A DNA stretch of 64,000 nt from an uncultured Gammaproteobacteria bacterium (GTDB taxonomy: Bacteria; Patescibacteriota; Patescibacteriia; UBA11705; JABHMO01), in assembly GCA_964362205.1 (NCBI GenBank), contig CAYIDA010000005.1:1-64000 (forward strand), given 5' to 3'. Below the pieces are notes generated by a model, which made no database searches, was not told the origin of the DNA, and worked only from the letters and a program-made list of their open reading frames with translations. Of the stretch, positions 5,626 through 63,413 are shown in pieces (the stretch's first letter is position 1; every line of letters starts with the position of its first letter). The position numbers and the translations under genes were made by a program.

Positions 5626-5803
5626 CCGCTTAAACTGAATTGGAAAGAATACATGATCTACTGATTACTAATGATATACTGATTACCGTTGACTATAATT
5701 TTAGTTGAGGTTTAATCAGTAGATTACGTAACTATCAGTACATCTGTATTATTTTGCTTCAAAGTTTTTAATCTTTCAATCTATTTTAATAATCCCAAAC
5801 TTT

Positions 5804-6139
5804 ATGTCAGAAGAAACACAGCAATTAAGCTCCAAGGACGTGTCGGACAATAAAGTAATCTCCGCCATCGGTTATATCGGCGTACTGTGCTTGATTCCGC
5901 TTTTGTTAAAAAAAGATAGCAAGTTCGCGCAGTTTCACGCCAAGCAGGGATTGGTTTTGTTTATCGCGGAAATCATGGTTTCTTTTGTGAATATTGTTCC
6001 ATTGCTTGGACAAATTGTTTGGTTTTTCGCCGGTTTAGTTTTTTTGGTGATGTCAGTGATTGGTTTACTGAAAGCCTGGAAAGGCGAGTGGTGGAAAATA
6101 CCGTATCTGCATGAATACGCGGAAAAAATTAATATTTAA
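5804..6139 (+). CDS. Small membrane protein (DUF4870-like, FHAKQG motif)
   Basis: 111 aa with two TM segments and a 'FAQFHAKQGLVLF' motif. Confidence 0.6.
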   Translation: MSEETQQLSSKDVSDNKVISAIGYIGVLCLIPLLLKKDSKFAQFHAKQGLVLFIAEIMVSFVNIVPLLGQIVWFFAGLVFLVMSVIGLLKAWKGEWWKIPYLHEYAEKINI

Positions 6140-6149
6140 GTTGTAAGGA

Positions 6150-6423
6150 TTGACAGCGTTGTATATAGTTTAATCTATAGATTCAATGAATATTCCGACA
6201 AATTGGTTTATCGCAGTTCTCCGAAGGGTTACTTTTTGACGCCCTGCACCAGTCGCTACGCCTGCCTGCGCGGCAGGGCTCCGGTGCAGGGCAAGCCAAA
6301 AGAGTTCACCTTTACCGTGAATTCGACGAAGGAGTGGTTTACGGCCAGACCCCGTGAAATGCAATGTAATCACGATAAACTATTAAATAAGTGGTTTCAT
6401 TATAAAACGTAAACAACGTTGGC
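6150..6423 (+). repeat. ~250-bp TIR-flanked structured element, copy A (candidate ncRNA or MITE). It is paralogous to 24520-24772 on the opposite strand.
   Basis: GC-rich island in AT-rich DNA. The ends AGCGTTGTATATAG (left) and AAACAACGTT (right) form an inverted repeat. The conserved 5' block is aatctatagattcaatgaatattccgacaaattggtttatcgc and the conserved 3' block is ccagaccccgtgaaatgcaatgtaatcac. The internal 9-bp stem is ccctgcacc...ggtgcaggg. Two six-frame ORFs called here are rejected as compositional artefacts. Confidence 0.6.
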
Positions 6424-6434
6424 AAATCTAATAT

Positions 6435-7880
6435 TTGATTATGGAAAATTTAAAACGAACAAAAATTGTTTGCACGCTGGGGCCGACTTCTGACAAGAAA
6501 CCGATTATCAAGCGTTTGATCAAAGCAGGCATGAATGTCAGCCGGCTTAATTTTTCGCACAATGTTCACTCTTATCATTTGAAAGTAATGAAGATGGTGA
6601 GGGCGGCGGCTATGGAATGCGCTGAACCGGTTGCAATTCTTCAAGATTTGCAAGGTCCGCGGATTAGATTGGGCGAATTGTCGGAAACTGGAATTAATCT
6701 GAAAAATAAAAGCCGTGTAATATTGACTACGGCTGATTCGACGGATGGGAAAAAGATTCCAGTGACTTACAAAAAAATGCATGAAGACGTTAAGGCTGGA
6801 GAAAGAATTTTGATTAGCGATGGTTTGATCGAGTTAAAAGTAAAAAGCGTTCAAAAAAAAGATATTATCTGCGTGGTGATAAACGGCGGTAAAATTTTTT
6901 CTCATAAAGGCATTAATTTGCCCGATACCAATGTTCGAATCGAGGCCTTGTCCGAGAAAGATAAAGAAGACCTGTTGTTTGGTGTGAAAAATAAAGTTGA
7001 TTTTGTGGCCTTGTCGTTTGTGAGAACCGCGAAAGATATTTATAATCTTAGAAAATTAATAGAGAAATATGAACGCCAACTAAAAATCAAAGCAACGTCG
7101 CCGATCAGAATTATCGCGAAAATAGAGCGGCGCGAGGCGATTGAAAACATAGACGAGATTTTGGCGTCGGCCGATGGTTTAATGGTGGCGCGCGGGGATC
7201 TTGGAATTGAAATGCCGGCTGAAGAGATTCCTTTGCTCCAAAAAATGTTGATTGACAAATGTTTGCACGCGGCCAAGCCAGTGATCGTGGCCACGCAAAT
7301 GTTGGAGTCCATGATCAATAATCCGCGACCGACCAGAGCCGAGGTTTCAGACGTGGCTAACGCCGTGATTGATCACACTGACGCGATCATGCTTTCCGGC
7401 GAAACGGCCAATGGGAAATTTCCGGTTGAGGCAGTGGAATATATGACGAAAATCGCGATCAATACGGAAAAATCAACTTATGATGATTTTGTTCTGCAGG
7501 AAAAAGTGAATCAAATTACTCCGGCGAATGACGCGGTGGCCGGCGTAGCCAAAGTTTTGACCGAGCAAGCAAATGTTAAATTAATTTTAGTTGCCTCATT
7601 GTCCGGGCATTCCGGCCGCGTGGTGAGCCGTTATCGGCCGGAAAAACCCATCTATGTTGCTTGCGATGAGCATCGGGTCGAACGTCAACTGAATTTGAAC
7701 TGGGGACTCAAACCGTTTGTTTTGCCCGCTTGTCAAACGATAAACAGCTTCATTGATCAGGCAACAAATTATTTGAAAAGGAAAAAAGTTGTTAAAAAAA
7801 ATGATCGAATCACGATTGTGTCCGGCATCACCATGGGGAAGTCGGGGACAACAGATTTTATAGAAATAAAAAAAATATAA
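6435..7880 (+). CDS. pyk: Pyruvate kinase
   Basis: N-terminus KIVCTLGPTSDKK...MNVSRLNFSHN and the MVARGDLGIEMP signature. The 481-aa length is consistent with pyruvate kinase. Confidence 0.95.
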   Translation: MIMENLKRTKIVCTLGPTSDKKPIIKRLIKAGMNVSRLNFSHNVHSYHLKVMKMVRAAAMECAEPVAILQDLQGPRIRLGELSETGINLKNKSRVILTTADSTDGKKIPVTYKKMHEDVKAGERILISDGLIELKVKSVQKKDIICVVINGGKIFSHKGINLPDTNVRIEALSEKDKEDLLFGVKNKVDFVALSFVRTAKDIYNLRKLIEKYERQLKIKATSPIRIIAKIERREAIENIDEILASADGLMVARGDLGIEMPAEEIPLLQKMLIDKCLHAAKPVIVATQMLESMINNPRPTRAEVSDVANAVIDHTDAIMLSGETANGKFPVEAVEYMTKIAINTEKSTYDDFVLQEKVNQITPANDAVAGVAKVLTEQANVKLILVASLSGHSGRVVSRYRPEKPIYVACDEHRVERQLNLNWGLKPFVLPACQTINSFIDQATNYLKRKKVVKKNDRITIVSGITMGKSGTTDFIEIKKI

Positions 7881-9280: not shown

Positions 9281-9500
9281 AAAGGTGCGGGGTTTGGCTG
9301 ACATTTTAATAATACTGATTTACCCTGTACTATAATTATTTCATATTAAGTACAGGGCAAGCTGATTGCTACTGATTTACTGATTATGCACTAATGGGAC
9401 AAAATAGACGAGATAATTAGGAGACGAGGGGCTCTTTTTTGTTTAATTTAATGACTTGATTTTCGTAAGAAATAATGATATGGTATTGGAGCAAATATTT

Positions 9501-22463: not shown

Positions 22464-22603
22464 GGGCTACAAATTACAAATCGTACAAATGTTACAAATT
22501 ACGAATTGTACGAATGTAATGTTGTGAATGGATTTGAAGTGGATTGGTAAGATTTGTATTATCTGTAATTTGTAACATTTGTACGATTTGTAATGTGTAA
22601 CGA
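22464..22603. repeat. Inverted-repeat leader (family F2: gctacaaattacaaatcgtacaaat words), copy a
   Basis: Left arm gggctacaaattacaaatcgtacaaatgttacaaattacgaattgtacgaatgtaatg. Right arm ttgtattatctgtaatttgtaacatttgtacgatttgtaatgtgtaacg. Confidence 0.75.
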
Positions 22604-24519: not shown

Positions 24520-24772
24520 AGCGTTGTATACATTTTTACCCTTTAACACTCTTATTTGATTTACGGTGATTACGTTGCATTTCACGGGGTCTGGGGTGAA
24601 CTCTTGCCACTTTCAGCACCACGAAAGATGATAGAACCACGCAATTGTGAACCCCAGCGCTTTTGCCTACTTTTGGCGTCAAAAGTAGGTCTGCGAAGCA
24701 TCGCGATAAACTAATTTGTTGGGATATTCATTGAATCCATAGATTAAACTGTAAACAACGCTACCAATTCTT
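24520..24772 (-). repeat. ~250-bp TIR-flanked structured element, copy B (paralogue of 6150-6423; minus-strand orientation)
   Basis: The reverse complement aligns with copy A. Both 5' blocks read agtttaatctat(a/g)gattcaatgaatat(t/c)cc(g/a)acaaatt(g/a)gtttatcgc. Both 3' blocks read ccagaccccgtgaaatgcaa(t/c)gtaatcac. They share ttttgacgcc and agagttcacc. The TIRs are AGCGTTGTATACAT and GTAAACAACGCT. Confidence 0.6.
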
Positions 24773-24791
24773 ACAAATAAGTCTTAATTTT

Positions 24792-30019: not shown

Positions 30020-30166
30020 GGCTACAAATCATGGCTACATATTACAAATCACTACGAATTTACGAATAGAACTAAAACGTATGAAGAGCGAAACGAAAGA
30101 ACAGTCTAAACCGATTTGCCTGCCCGCGCAGGCGGGTAAATTTGTAGTGATTTGTAATTTGTAGCA
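30020..30166. repeat. F2 inverted-repeat leader, copy b. It forms a perfect long hairpin and ends 5 nt before the ATG at 30172.
   Basis: Left arm ggctacaaatcatggctacatattacaaatcactacgaattt. Right arm aaatttgtagtgatttgtaatttgtagcaaac. The centre contains the gcccgcgcaggcggg hairpin. Confidence 0.75.
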
Positions 30167-30747: not shown

Positions 30748-30890
30748 GTTAGTTGATAATTAACCTAATTATTCTAATTATTTTAATTGACCTAAATAAT
30801 AGCCAAATAACAATAACCAAAAACTATTTTATGTTTGGGATTTCGGAATTCGAAATTATTTAGAATAATTAGAACAATTAGGTCAATTAT
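30748..30890. repeat. AT-rich inverted-repeat leader (family F4: taattagg / cctaatta words), copy b
   Basis: Left arm ttgataattaacctaattattctaattattttaattgacctaaataat. Right arm ttagaataattagaacaattaggtcaattatcg. Sister copy at 251-400. Confidence 0.65.
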
Positions 30891-34657: not shown

Positions 34658-34763
34658 TCGTATTAAACAACCTTGTCTTTCTTAAAGACAGGGTTTTTTG
34701 TTTTAATCGTAGTTATTTAGTGTGAGTTTGCTTCGAGGTTTTCCTGAAGGAAAGTTTGAACAG

Positions 34764-34880
34764 GGAAGGTTGAGGAGGTCAGGAGATCGGCGAAGCCGAC
34801 AAGCCGTTAAGGTTTCTAAAATCCTGTTCATGTCGGAATAGGGTTGGGCATGGGCGGTAAGATGTTTTTGTTTATAAAAC
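34764..34880 (+). repeat. GC-rich structured element family F5, diverged copy 1
   Basis: Begins GGAAGGTTGAGGAGGTC and ends tgtttataaaac. GC-rich in an AT-rich intergenic region. Confidence 0.55.
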
Positions 34881-34894
34881 GTTTAGAGTATAGT

Positions 34895-35074
34895 TCAGCT
34901 GATTTTTTTGTTTAAAAATGGAAGGTTGAGGAGGTCGATAGACCGACGAAACCGACCGCCCGTCAGGGCATCTCAACCCCCTCCACGTCGGAACGGGGAG
35001 GGGGCAGGCTTGCCCAGTACTTGCGCGAAGCAAATAGTGCTGGGGGGTGGGGCGCAGTCCATGTTTATAACACT
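34895..35074 (+). repeat. GC-rich structured element family F5, copy 2 (candidate ncRNA or leader upstream of rfbB)
   Basis: Nearly identical to 52696-52887 over ~170 nt: ggaaggttgagg(a/g)agtcgatagaccgacgaaaccgaccgcccgtcagggca...ggcaggcttgcccagtacttgcgcga(a/t)gcaaatagtgctggggggtgggg. Internal hairpin ttgc-gcgaa-gcaa. A six-frame ORF called here is rejected. Confidence 0.6.
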
Positions 35075-35164: not shown

Positions 35165-36211
35165 ATGAAATTACTCGTAACCGGCGGTGCCGGTTTTATC
35201 GGTTCAAATTTCATTCGGCATATTTTGAATAAATATCCGTACTATTTTGTTATTAATCTTGATAAACTGACTTACGCCGGCAATTTGGACAATTTGAAAC
35301 AGTTTGAGAGTCATCCGAATTACAAATTCGTTAAAGGAGATATTCTGAACTCAGAATTAATTGAGCATGTCGCGGCTGATGTTGATATTATTGTTCACTT
35401 TGCCGCTGAGACGCACGTTGATCGTTCGGTTCTTGATCCGTTTTCTTTTGTGAAAACCAATGTCCTCGGCACGCACGTTCTGCTTGAAGCCGCGAGAAAA
35501 TTAGGCAACAAAAGATTTCATCATATTTCCACTGACGAAGTTTTCGGTTCTTTGCCGCTTGAGGATACGCATCGTTCATTTCACGAAGAAACGCCGTATG
35601 ATCCGAAGAGTCCGTATTCATCATCAAAAGCCGCGTCCGATCATTTGGTTCGGGCGTATTATCACACTTATGGTTTGCCGATTACGATTTCCAATTGTTC
35701 AAATAATTATGGACAGTTTCAATTTCCGGAAAAAGTGATTCCGCTTTTCATTACCAATTTACTGGAAGGGAAAAAAGTGCCGCTTTACGGAGATGGAAAA
35801 AATGTACGTGATTGGATTCACGTGGAGGATCATTGCGAAGCAGTGGACGCGATTATTCACAAAGGAAAAATCGGCCATACTTATGTTGTTGGCGCTGATT
35901 GCGAGAAAACAAATTATGAATTGACCATGACGATTTTGAAACATTTGGGACATGGCGAAGAAATGATTGAATTTGTGAAAGACCGTCCGGGCCATGATCG
36001 CCGCTATGCTATGCGTTCGCACAAAATTCAGGCAGAACTCGGCTGGAAACCGAAATACAATTTTGAAGATGGTATGCGCCAAACCATTGATTGGTATGTG
36101 GCAAACAAAGATTGGTGGCAGAAAGTGAAGTCAGGGGAGTATTTGAAATATTATGACGAGTGGTACGGAAGTCGGCTACAAATTACGAATCGTACAAATG
36201 TTACAAATTGA
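35165..36211 (+). CDS. rfbB: dTDP-glucose 4,6-dehydratase
   Basis: MKLLVTGGAGFIGSNF... SDR-family with YxxxK. 348 aa. The last ~12 codons are encoded by the left arm of an F2 repeat. Confidence 0.95.
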   Translation: MKLLVTGGAGFIGSNFIRHILNKYPYYFVINLDKLTYAGNLDNLKQFESHPNYKFVKGDILNSELIEHVAADVDIIVHFAAETHVDRSVLDPFSFVKTNVLGTHVLLEAARKLGNKRFHHISTDEVFGSLPLEDTHRSFHEETPYDPKSPYSSSKAASDHLVRAYYHTYGLPITISNCSNNYGQFQFPEKVIPLFITNLLEGKKVPLYGDGKNVRDWIHVEDHCEAVDAIIHKGKIGHTYVVGADCEKTNYELTMTILKHLGHGEEMIEFVKDRPGHDRRYAMRSHKIQAELGWKPKYNFEDGMRQTIDWYVANKDWWQKVKSGEYLKYYDEWYGSRLQITNRTNVTN

Positions 36212-36347
36212 CCAAGACTGTATATTTTGTTCTAAATGATTTTTCGACTGCTTTTTCCTAACTGATAAGCCTGTTCTTCCGTTCTTTCGTTTAAAGTTTT
36301 TTATGTAGAAATTCGTAGATTCGTAGCCAATTCGTAATTGGTAGCCC
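36174..36347. repeat. F2 inverted-repeat element, copy c. Its left arm overlaps the rfbB 3' end.
   Basis: cggctacaaattacgaatcgtacaaatgttacaaatt ... gtagaaattcgtagattcgtagccaattcgtaattggtagccc. The centre holds ccgttctttcgtt words. Confidence 0.7.
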
Positions 36348-42881: not shown

Positions 42882-42993
42882 TGGCTACAAATTACAAATC
42901 ACTACAAATTTACAAATAGACAAAAGAATGTATGAACAAAAGAACAGTCTAAACAGATTTGTAAATTTGTAGTGATTTGTAATTTGTAGCAAC
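42882..42993. repeat. F2 inverted-repeat leader, copy d (perfect long hairpin), ending 1 nt before the ATG at 42995
   Basis: tggctacaaattacaaatcactacaaattt ... aaatttgtagtgatttgtaatttgtagcaac. Confidence 0.75.
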
Positions 42994-50910: not shown

Positions 50911-50964
50911 AATTTGTATAATTCGTAATTTGTAACATTTGTACGATTTGTAATTTGTAGCAAT
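50911..50964. repeat. F2 half-element (right-arm type only) filling the rplI-pyrG spacer, ending 0 nt before the pyrG ATG
   Basis: aatttgtataattcgtaatttgtaacatttgtacgatttgtaatttgtagcaat then ATG. Confidence 0.7.
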
Positions 50965-52611
50965 ATGTGCAAGTTTATTTTCGTGGTCGGCGGAGTGATG
51001 AGCGGTGTTGGCAAAGGAGTGGCCGCTGCTTCCATCGGCCGGATTTTGCAGAGCAAAGGCTATCGCGTTTCCGCGATTAAGATTGACCCATATATCAATA
51101 TTGACGCCGGCACCATGAATCCCACGGAGCACGGCGAAGTTTTTGTCACAGAGGATGGAGATGAGACTGATCAAGATATTGGCAACTATGAACGCTTTCT
51201 AAATCAGAATATATATTCCGATAACTACATGACCACCGGCCGAGTTTACCAAACAGTAATCGAGCGCGAAAGAAATCTCGGCTATCATGGAAAATGCGTG
51301 GAGGTGGTGCCGCATATTCCCGAGGAAATTATTCGTCGCATAAATAACGCGGCCAAGAAGAGCGACGCTGAAATAATGATGGTGGAAATCGGCGGCACGG
51401 TCGGTGAATATCAAAACCTGTTATTTTTGGAGGCAGCGCGCATGATGAAGATGCAGAATTTTCATGATGTGCTTTTTATTTTGGTTTCTTTTTTGCCGGT
51501 GCCGGGAAAATTGGGAGAAATGAAAACCAAACCAACGCAATATGCGATTCGCACTTTGAATTCCGCCGGCATTCAAGCTGACTTTGTCCTGTGCCGCGCC
51601 GAGCAAGCGATTGACAAAGAACGTAAACAAAAAATTGCCGTGAATGGCGGTTTGTTTCCGGATCATATTATATCCGCGCCGGACGTTGATTCTATTTATG
51701 ATATTCCGGTTAATTTTGAAGCAGAACATTTGGGTGAAAAGATTTTGAAACAATTCGGTTGGAGCCCGCGTCAGATCGGCGGACTTGAGGAATGGAAAGA
51801 GTTCGTGATGAAAAGCAAATCAGCGCAGAAAATAGTTAAAATCGGTATCTGCGGAAAATATTTTAAAACCGGTGATTTTGTTTTAAAGGATTCATACATT
51901 TCTGTGATTGAGGCGATCAAACACGCGGCCGGCGTAAATGATGTTAAGACGGAAATACAATGGCTGAACGCAGAAGTTTACGAAGAAGACGCTTCAAAAC
52001 TGAGAGAGTTGTCACAGTTTGACGGAGTGATTGTGCCGGGCGGTTTTGGCGGACGGGGGGTGGAAGGAAAAATTAATGCTATTCGTTATTTGCGAGAGAA
52101 TAAAATTCCATTTTTCGGGCTTTGCTACGGATTGCAATTAGCGACGATTGAATTTGCCAGGAATGTTTGCGGATTAACGGACGCGACTTCTGAAGAAATC
52201 AATTCGAGCGCCAGTCATCAAGTGATTCATATCATGCCTGACCAAATTCAAAATATTGATCAGAAGAAATACGGCGCGACCATGCGTCTCGGCGCCTACC
52301 CCTGTGTTCTCGACGAGCGTTCGATTTGTTATCAGGCATATGGCGAAAAACAAATATCCGAGCGCCACCGCCACCGCTATGAAGTTAACAATTATTATCG
52401 CGATTTAATGGAACAAAAAGGATTGATGTTTGCCGGCTTGTCGCCTGATCGGCGTTTGGTGGAAGCGATTGAATTGCCCGGACATCCGTTTTTCGTGGCC
52501 ACGCAATTTCATCCTGAATTTAAATCAAGACCAATTGTCGGGCACCCGCTATTTAATGCGTTTATTAAAGTTTGCCTTAATAAATATGAACGAGAATTTA
52601 ATAGTAGATAA
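50965..52611 (+). CDS. pyrG: CTP synthase
   Basis: MCKFIFVVGGVMSGVGKGV... synthetase domain plus a GATase-1 domain (GLCYGLQ). 548 aa. Confidence 0.95.
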   Translation: MCKFIFVVGGVMSGVGKGVAAASIGRILQSKGYRVSAIKIDPYINIDAGTMNPTEHGEVFVTEDGDETDQDIGNYERFLNQNIYSDNYMTTGRVYQTVIERERNLGYHGKCVEVVPHIPEEIIRRINNAAKKSDAEIMMVEIGGTVGEYQNLLFLEAARMMKMQNFHDVLFILVSFLPVPGKLGEMKTKPTQYAIRTLNSAGIQADFVLCRAEQAIDKERKQKIAVNGGLFPDHIISAPDVDSIYDIPVNFEAEHLGEKILKQFGWSPRQIGGLEEWKEFVMKSKSAQKIVKIGICGKYFKTGDFVLKDSYISVIEAIKHAAGVNDVKTEIQWLNAEVYEEDASKLRELSQFDGVIVPGGFGGRGVEGKINAIRYLRENKIPFFGLCYGLQLATIEFARNVCGLTDATSEEINSSASHQVIHIMPDQIQNIDQKKYGATMRLGAYPCVLDERSICYQAYGEKQISERHRHRYEVNNYYRDLMEQKGLMFAGLSPDRRLVEAIELPGHPFFVATQFHPEFKSRPIVGHPLFNAFIKVCLNKYEREFNSR

Positions 52612-52695
52612 AGAGTTTTGATGGAGCTTGTTCGGAGCGATTGGACAAAAGTCAATTTAAAAATCATAAATAGATTTCAGGATAATTAGACTGAT

Positions 52696-52887
52696 TTTTT
52701 TTGTTTTAAAATAGAAGGTTGAGGGAGTCGATAGACCGACGAAACCGACCGCCCGTCAGGGCACCTCAAACCCCCTCCACGTCGCCCTTCGAGTACCTCA
52801 GGGTGACAGGAGGAGGGGGCAGGCTTGCCCAGTACTTGCGCGATGCAAATAGTGCTGGGGGGTGGGGTGCGGTCTTGGTTATAAAAG
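52696..52887 (+). repeat. GC-rich structured element family F5, copy 3
   Basis: Close paralogue of 34895-35074, including the shared upstream gatttttttgtttaaaa(t/a)(g/t)(g/a) context. A six-frame ORF called here is rejected. Confidence 0.6.
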
Positions 52888-57789: not shown

Positions 57790-57930
57790 GTTTGAATTTA
57801 AATTGTTCGGTGATTGTCTGACTTGCTCCGCCGTTGGCGGGGTGAAGTAGGGTAGTCGGTCTAGTGATTTGTTTGAATTTTTAATTTGGAATTTTATTTG
57901 GGTTTCGGATTTTGAATTTTGAGTTTGTCT
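57790..57930 (+). repeat. Word-stutter leader (tttgaatttt words) upstream of tRNA-Gln
   Basis: gtttgaatttaaattg ... gatttgtttgaatttttaatttggaattttatttgggtttcggattttgaattttgagtttg. Includes the small GC hairpin ccgccgttggcgg. Confidence 0.55.
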
Positions 57931-58532: not shown

Positions 58533-58676
58533 CTCAACCCCCTTTCATTGGTTGAATCTTTAAGAGTTTAACCGAGGAGAAACGGTTTGTCAAGCGGTTA
58601 AATTTTTGTTATACTTTTGTCGTTATGCGCTACACGCTACACGATATACGACACACGTATACGATACACGAACATT

Positions 58677-63314: not shown

Positions 63315-63413
63315 GATTGGTGAGATGATTGGGATATTTGAGATGATTGAGATTTATTTGAATCATATATAGATGTCCCAATATTCCCAAATTTCTCAAT
63401 GATCCCAATAATC
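63314..63413. repeat. F1 inverted-repeat element, copy b (ttgggata/gagat ... atctcaa/atcccaa words)
   Basis: ggattggtgagatgattgggatatttgagatgattgagat ... gtcccaatattcccaaatttctcaatgatcccaataatcc. It lies between convergent genes. Confidence 0.7.

Follow-up and report, generated by a model that had tools for sequence, protein, structure and literature searches.

Inverted word arrays in the intergenic spacers of a Patescibacteria genome and their association with GxxExxY nuclease genes

A 64-kb stretch of Patescibacteria DNA, referred to here as the window, carries long arrays of short tandem words at five places, four of them with an inverted partner that would allow a hairpin to form, which raises the question of whether these hairpins are leaders kept by the host for the genes behind them or copies of a mobile repeat. 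The preliminary description presented them as perfect inverted-repeat leaders lying immediately 5' of genes, and offered protein-binding platforms, RNA thermometers and REP/BIME-like elements as possible identities. We favor a mobile repeat, with a probability of roughly 0.6 for the specific reading that F2, as we call the family, is a REPIN- or MITE-like, gene-less partner of an element encoding a GxxExxY nuclease, and not a set of gene-specific leaders.

Anatomy of the F2 copies in the window

The clustering of TACAAAT- and TACGAAT-type words at five loci was confirmed, since 37 of the 50 TACRAAT occurrences in the window lie inside the loci named beforehand. Shuffled sequences contained 22.8 +/- 5.2 occurrences, and none of 100 shuffles reached 50 or more. 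The F2 loci are inverted word arrays, the words of the full loci standing on the + strand in left arms and on the - strand in right arms. The copies and one nested insertion are listed below, with the arm subtypes of the wider family.

Copy a, 22465-22601: subtype 2; left arm (+ words) 22465-22515, centre of 36 nt, right arm (- words) 22552-22601
Copy b, 30020-30166: subtype 1; left arm (+ words) 30033-30067, asymmetric centre of about 69 nt, right arm (- words) 30137-30165
GC-rich mini-insertion, 30119-30136: 18 nt, CCTGCCCGCGCAGGCGGG; interrupts copy b at ATTTG^TAAATTTGTA, within word one of its right arm
Copy c, 36174-36346: decayed; left arm (+ words) 36174-36208, subtype 2; right arm (- words) about 36305-36346, TACGAAT-type words
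Copy d, 42883-42990: subtype 1; perfect stem of 34 bp (42883-42917 / 42957-42990), centre of 39 nt
Copy e, 50911-50961: solo right arm, subtype 2, filling the gap between rplI (stop codon 50908-50910) and pyrG (ATG at 50965)

The arms had been described as exact reverse complements with perfect 28-bp stems at copies b and d. Complementarity held and exactness did not: the stem of d has 34 bp, that of b is interrupted (23 perfect pairs, one mismatch and six further pairs), the 48-nt arms of copy a are 88% complementary and its right-arm terminus is degenerate (GTAATGTGTAAC), and copy c must be regarded as decayed, because pairing is left only in its 17 terminal nt (94%), its centre has grown to 139 nt and its fold z-score is only -1.9. 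Likewise, a centre of 60-80 nt fits copy b and not copies a, c and d, while the half-site recognized at the fifth locus is indeed a solo right arm. Copy b additionally has a duplicated terminus of 13 nt (30020-30032). For copies a, b and d folded as RNA, the energies are -51.2, -52.4 and -49.1 kcal/mol and the z-scores -7.8, -7.5 and -13.6, respectively, and the opposite strands of these copies fold about equally stably.

A dispersed family and its turnover at orthologous sites

A search outside the window with the 18-mer GGCTACAAATTACRAATC revealed F2 as a dispersed family: a Patescibacteria MAG of the same aquifer (well H51) contains 28 loci, and further copies lie in one Falkowbacteria genome, one Parcubacteria genome and several metagenomes. 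Matches in Nostoc, Prochlorococcus and other bacteria outside the Patescibacteria lie within genes and were rejected as chance. Altogether more than 50 further F2 copies were found outside the window. They comprise complete copies as well as solo arms, and their arms belong to two matched subtypes; the loci that carry them have no DNA in common with the window apart from repeats. This distribution does not argue for a transfer of F2 between genomes, since the window and the MAG richest in F2 agree in GC and GC3 and may stem from the same or a sister species. Identical proteins are encoded on contigs recovered from two groundwater wells of the Hainich, H51 and H32.

A full copy measures 89-186 bp and consists of two matched arms around a short, poorly conserved centre, each arm comprising 32-48 nt built from four to six tandem words of 7-9 nt (TACAAAT/TACGAAT) and ending in GGCTAC. 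The two arm subtypes are GGCTACAAATTACAAATCACTACAAATTTACAAAT and GGCTACAAATTACAAATCGTACAAATGTTACAAAT; the subtype is the same on both arms in 22 of 23 full copies, and Watson-Crick pairs occur at 428 of 463 stem positions (92%). Solo arms are remnants. No direct repeat indicative of a target-site duplication was found beside any of the 23 full copies. Moreover, the F2 words contain a fixed site, ATT(T/C)G^TA(A)TTTGTA, that holds GC-rich inserts of 18, 30, 33 or 45 nt in window copy b and in loci L017, L019, L022, L040, L007, L033, L006 and L077, and by analogy these inserts look like a nested site-specific mini-element of the kind of the very small dispersed repeats of Nostoc. In one of the collected loci (L042, 5472-6193), two full F2 hairpins enclose an hsp20 gene, and 2 nt separate its ATG from the end of the hairpin ahead of it.

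Comparison of orthologous sites was possible at several places. The PyrG of the window is 77% identical to Kuenenbacteria and Falkowbacteria proteins, which, together with the identical proteins from the Hainich wells, makes the host a member of the Patescibacteria. The rplI-pyrG spacer, which contains an F2 arm in the window, was compared with relatives in which PyrG is 91-94% identical: it contains a plain GC hairpin in two of them (L045 and L046, 91-92%) and other word arrays in the more distant L047 and L048. The rfbC-pgsA spacer of a 92% relative holds a diverged, G-rich F2. At the rfbB locus, the left arm of copy c encodes the last 11 codons of the gene, the stop codon of which (36209-36211) lies inside the copy; the orthologue in L048 stops directly after WYNRK, without these codons. 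The turnover of the spacers and the overwritten 3' end of rfbB are marks of an inserted, fast-evolving selfish repeat, and F2 would be one judging from these sequence comparisons.

About one third of the intergenic spacers of the window hold other word-array hairpins of the F2 design, some of them common to the MAG:

247-399 and 30757-30889: AATTA-word hairpins
10982-11114 and 63321-63408: CCCAA-word hairpins, the latter between convergent genes
5650-5745, 9310-9390, 18735-18895, 58631-58671 and 57868-57926: hairpins of other words (TACTGAT, TACAGAT, TACACGA, TTTGAAT)

The TACAGAT hairpin makes up the whole 5' UTR of dnaE and directly follows a -10 box (TGTGGTAAAAT). Two repeats of other kinds were also observed. 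One, of about 200 nt and dispersed, occurs at 24576-24790 and, inverted, at 6126-6440, upstream of thrS and pyk, and elsewhere in L042 (twice), L001, L085, L057, L045, L012, L022 and L104 with 70-92% identity; it gave no Rfam match. The other, GC-rich within AT-rich surroundings, about 180 nt long and 82-95% identical between copies, is found at 34890-35070 and 52691-52884, with a partial copy at 34747-34825; it lies past a terminator upstream of rfbB and past pyrG, likewise gave no Rfam match, and could represent a structured RNA or a further kind of mobile element.

Position of F2 relative to genes

All copies in the window had been placed immediately 5' of a + strand gene. This is correct for copies b, d and e, in which an ATG follows 5, 4 and 3 nt past the terminal GTAGCA, and incorrect for copies a and c, from which the next start is 41 or 87 nt and 47 nt away, respectively. 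In copies b, d and e, 0-1 nt separates the element from the stop codon ahead of it, and the whole spacer is filled, b reaching from the rfbC stop directly upstream to the ATG of a CDP-alcohol phosphatidyltransferase gene and d, 1 nt past the stop of a DUF5663 gene, to that of a 61-codon ORF; copy a begins 35 nt past the dnaE stop codon. When distances were tabulated across the family, the expected bias toward 5' leaders did not appear, as termini lie near stops about as often as near starts: among 75 F2 termini, 31 are within 12 nt of an outward start codon and 19 within 5 nt of the stop of a gene running toward the element. Since termini abut starts as well as stops, F2 elements are spacer-filling and are no markers of 5' ends. 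Among the solo arms, 9-10 adjoin a start and 3 a stop, a difference that is not significant. The genes adjoining copies a-e are mutually unrelated housekeeping genes, and a tRNA gene lies just downstream of one F2 copy (L081).

The three identities proposed for the hairpins fared differently. An RNA thermometer was not borne out, because there is no Shine-Dalgarno sequence to sequester and the start codon lies outside the stem; no hairpin masking either of them in the manner of ROSE or fourU elements was seen. A protein platform specific to certain genes does not fit the stop-abutting copies, the occurrence of both orientations or the lack of conservation at orthologous sites. The REP/BIME-like suggestion comes nearest, in that F2 copies are palindromic, lie outside genes, are dispersed and come as full copies and as solo arms. 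No Shine-Dalgarno sequence was found after F2 elements, which is a genome-wide trait and no property of the element (a recognizable one precedes only 6 of the 47 window genes). A -10 box stands 6-8 nt ahead of the ATG in several window genes (15888, 16532 and 61698), which suggests leaderless or very-short-leader mRNAs.

Searches for other known signals gave little. No Rfam covariance model matched anywhere in 22000-53200, whether the gathering threshold or a limit of E <= 1 was applied. Intrinsic terminators have a short GC-rich stem and a T-run, whereas the arms are rich in AT and lack such a run; a terminator scan scored only the nested GC insert of copy b within F2, and the real terminators of the window are canonical. 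The arms contain no consensus match to a sigma-70 promoter (-35/-10 with a spacing of 16-18 nt), and the promoter scan picked up a single 9/12 match, which falls within the centre of copy a.

These observations bear on the reading of F2 as cis-acting RNA leader hairpins kept by the host, be it as 5' stabilizers, thermometers or stop/start translation-coupling devices, which we consider improbable. The strength of the hairpins would agree with it, as would the geometry of copies b and d, with a stop 0-1 nt before the 5' arm and a start 4-5 nt past the 3' arm, the hsp20 gene preceded by one copy and the non-significant excess of solo arms at starts. Besides, a -10 box lies directly before the left terminus in L103 and L090/L096, where the copies would form the 5' end of the transcript, as it does before the TACAGAT-family hairpin of dnaE. 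However, F2 occurs in both orientations, its asymmetric centre being sense relative to transcription in four copies and antisense in three, and the mismatches compatible with G-U pairing have no strand bias (9 fall on the transcribed strand, 11 on the opposite one), which counts against selection on the RNA strand, since such selection should favor G-U on the transcribed strand. Copies are also found 3' of genes, ahead of a tRNA gene and overlapping a coding end, the related hairpin at 63321-63408 stands between convergent genes, the genes flanking F2 are functionally unrelated, orthologous sites are not conserved, and there is neither a Shine-Dalgarno sequence to mask nor an Rfam match. A host regulatory role of F2 is thus secondary at best: the stop-hairpin-start geometry of b and d could couple the translation of the adjoining genes, and mRNAs that begin with a copy could be stabilized by it.

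GxxExxY nuclease genes and the possible origin of the hairpins

At two loci of the MAG, the F2 arms stand about 450 nt apart with a single ORF in between. This ORF encodes a PD-(D/E)XK nuclease of 129 aa belonging to the Pfam family PDDEXK_3 and the NCBIfam family GxxExxY, with matches of 90.7 bits to PF13366 (cut-off 22, E = 1e-25) and 87.7 bits to TIGR04256 (cut-off 35, E = 7e-25). Residues E34, D73 and E83-x-K85 are invariant in the GxxExxY alignment, and the fold of the protein is Cas4-like. All four GxxExxY homologues in the collected F2 loci lie between F2 arms (L043, L013 with its orthologue L099, and L077), in three independent contexts and with both arm subtypes, and the inner arm ends at these loci match the inner ends of gene-less copies. 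The 64-kb window itself contains no GxxExxY gene. At another locus, from a Parcubacteria genome of Lake Pavin (L041, 5324-5876), an ORF of 154 aa with no Pfam or NCBIfam match lies between F2-like arms and may be a second type of cargo.

The F2-linked GxxExxY loci were baited by the repeat, so that proximity alone is a biased measure there, and distant homologues were for this reason fetched by protein instead. Four homologues with 37-45% identity, from metagenomes and genomes, all lie inside inverted arrays of the words TACGAAA, TACGGAG, CCAGATAAT and CACGAAA. In Bacteroides finegoldii, Bernardetia and Sphingomonas (from a plasmid collection), the gene is wedged between housekeeping genes, e.g. 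fabD and fabG, and bracketed by arrays of the words CACAGAGGA, CACAGAGA and CGCGAAGG, and one Gemmatirosa copy has complete gene-less hairpins of CGCAGAGGA words on both sides. A flanking inverted-repeat score above 13 was obtained for 7 of 13 protein-baited GxxExxY genes and for none of 93 control genes (0/46 neighbouring plasmid genes and 0/47 window genes; Fisher p = 5e-6 against the 46 plasmid genes). A clear flanking inverted array is missing in the other six, from Prevotella, Persicobacter, Fusobacteria, Treponema (marginal) and Gemmatirosa (two copies), both low-scoring Gemmatirosa copies having gene-less word hairpins nearby. The association of GxxExxY genes with word arrays is statistically strong and generalizes across Patescibacteria, Bacteroidota, Sphingomonas and Gemmatimonadota. 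Moreover, protein similarity tracks word similarity, as the nearest outgroup (45% identity) has the word TACGAAA and the group of Bacteroides, Bernardetia and Gemmatirosa (49-55% identity) has the common word C(A/G)CAGAG(G)A. The GxxExxY genes are co-directional with the surrounding operon.

On a Fusobacteria plasmid (CP102406.1, locus L112), a GxxExxY gene stands between direct repeats of about 55 nt instead of inverted arrays. Many GxxExxY relatives carry two domains in tandem and are about 265 aa long. The family comprises 20,530 clusters at 50% identity, and no relatives in viral contigs were confirmed. A survey of PD-(D/E)XK proteins lists the function of GxxExxY as "unknown" (PMC3424549). 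An incomplete search of the literature on GxxExxY, PDDEXK_3 and TIGR04256, on Patescibacteria MITEs and on palindromes of the candidate phyla radiation found nothing on the association of these genes with word arrays, and a class of mobile elements with GxxExxY genes and word-array ends, if real, would be undescribed in the searchable literature.

The preferred reading, F2 as gene-less partner of a GxxExxY nuclease element, builds on what the sequences show: a repeat family with matched arms, signs of insertion, orthologous spacers with differing content, and GxxExxY genes associated with word arrays across phyla. The arm-nuclease-arm unit would be the gene-carrying form of the element and F2 the gene-less form. 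Nuclease action on the arrays, the chemistry of transposition or homing, and effects on RNA are inferred. Most probably, the enzyme would recognize either the word array that belongs to it or the structure, hairpin or cruciform, into which both arrays fold, and would cut there; cutting would allow copies to spread into short intergenic spacers or to be copied between them. Inserted hairpins would then be transcribed along with the flanking genes and might alter mRNA stability or couple the translation of neighbours. Several points count against this explanation: the window has no GxxExxY gene, the F2-linked nuclease loci were baited by the repeat, six of the 13 protein-baited genes have no clear flanking array, a PD-(D/E)XK nuclease alone cannot join strands, target-site duplications are absent, the F2-rich MAG may be the window's own or a sister species, and no spacer was seen both filled and empty within one population.

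A different division of labour, which we hold to be unlikely and yet worth keeping in mind, would make the hairpins landing pads that spread in some other way, for instance through a different transposase or recombination by the host. GxxExxY would then be a selfish gene of the homing type, the product of which cuts hairpins lacking a gene, and would be copied into their centre with the arms serving as homology. The gene is always central, its arms match those of gene-less copies of both subtypes, gene-less hairpins vastly outnumber gene-bearing ones, complete hairpins lie beside the gene in Gemmatirosa, and the co-orientation with the operon resembles that of free-standing homing genes, all of which this model would accommodate. 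However, the arrays of Bacteroides, Bernardetia and Sphingomonas travel with the gene into ordinary operon spacers such as fabD-fabG, which fits a unit of arrays plus gene, and no other transposase was found near F2 in 762 kb of collected sequence. It is far less plausible that F2 consists of REP/REPIN elements moved by a RAYT (a transposase of the Y1 HUH type) from another part of the genome, with the GxxExxY link being incidental. The termini of F2, CTAC...GTAG, are reminiscent of the GTAG conserved in REPs. Its doublets and singlets resemble REPINs (PMC3116915), and a faint Y1_Tnp match was seen at the edge of the Kuenenbacteria contig L048. However, the arms are not palindromes themselves, the GxxExxY association is statistically strong and cross-phylum, and a tblastn search of the 762 kb, which come from incomplete genomes, with an approximate IS200 TnpA query found no Y1 transposase near any F2 copy, so that a RAYT-driven system is not supported; the sole match, in L058, has no F2 word cluster, and the 18-mer match there is apparently chance.

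Known repeat systems share parts of this design. REPINs are REP doublets that form hairpins (Bertels and Rainey 2011, PMC3116915). F2 is likewise extragenic and of high copy number (five copies in the 64-kb window and 28 loci in a single MAG), with two inverted units around a short spacer forming a hairpin, decayed singlets, a small enzyme gene inside inverted repeats and no target-site duplication. It differs in that REP units are single imperfect palindromes of 20-40 nt, whereas F2 arms are direct tandem words of 7-9 nt with no internal palindrome, in the bracketed gene, which encodes a PD-(D/E)XK nuclease and not a Y1 HUH transposase, and in its Patescibacteria host. As in MITEs (non-coding elements of 50-500 bp with terminal inverted repeats), the copies are 89-186 bp long with 92% complementary arms, but the target-site duplication of classical cut-and-paste MITEs is missing in the 23 full copies, and no parent IS having F2 termini and a DDE transposase was seen in the fetched loci. 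The Correia/NEMIS elements of Neisseria and the ERIC elements of enterobacteria are bacterial MITEs co-transcribed with neighbouring genes. F2 resembles them in its size (about 100-150 bp), long terminal inverted repeats, location in spacers and operons, hairpin transcripts and variable orthologous sites, and differs in having no TA or other target duplication, no DDE transposase partner found and tandem-word arms.

Additional likenesses concern other kinds of repeats. In cyanobacteria, very small dispersed repeats reportedly insert into the heptamers of short tandemly repeated repetitive sequences (STRR); F2 has in common with these the intergenic tandem 7-mers, several word families per genome and nested GC-rich mini-insertions at a fixed site, and differs in phylum, in its matched inverted pairs, in a conserved order of word variants and in being dispersed as a whole. 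Integron attC sites, e.g. the Vibrio cholerae repeats, are also imperfect palindromes of about 60-140 nt that fill stop-to-start gaps between co-directional genes. However, F2 has no R''/R' core sites (RYYYAAC / GTTRRRY), its termini being GGCTAC/GTAGCC, its stems are perfect, without extrahelical bases, its neighbours are syntenic housekeeping genes and not cassettes, and no integrase was found. The intervening sequences of 23S rRNA carry a small ORF for a four-helix bundle protein between inverted termini. Like them, the gene-bearing F2 loci have an ORF of about 120-130 aa enclosed by inverted repeats that pair once transcribed, and are inserted in a host transcription unit; they differ in the family of the ORF and in lying between protein genes instead of in rRNA helices.

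In a wider reading, to which we give slightly less than an even chance, GxxExxY proteins would be the nucleases of widespread small mobile elements with lineage-specific word-array ends, and hairpins of the F2 type would be their offspring or landing pads. For annotation, word-array hairpins should not be taken for riboswitch-like leaders, and they break assemblies and confuse the prediction of gene starts. If the proposed relationship is true, it would provide the first directly testable function for GxxExxY, a very large family without a known role, and would place a second enzyme class beside the RAYTs in the systems that maintain bacterial palindromic repeats. It would also explain the word-array hairpins that pack the spacers of these reduced Patescibacteria genomes.
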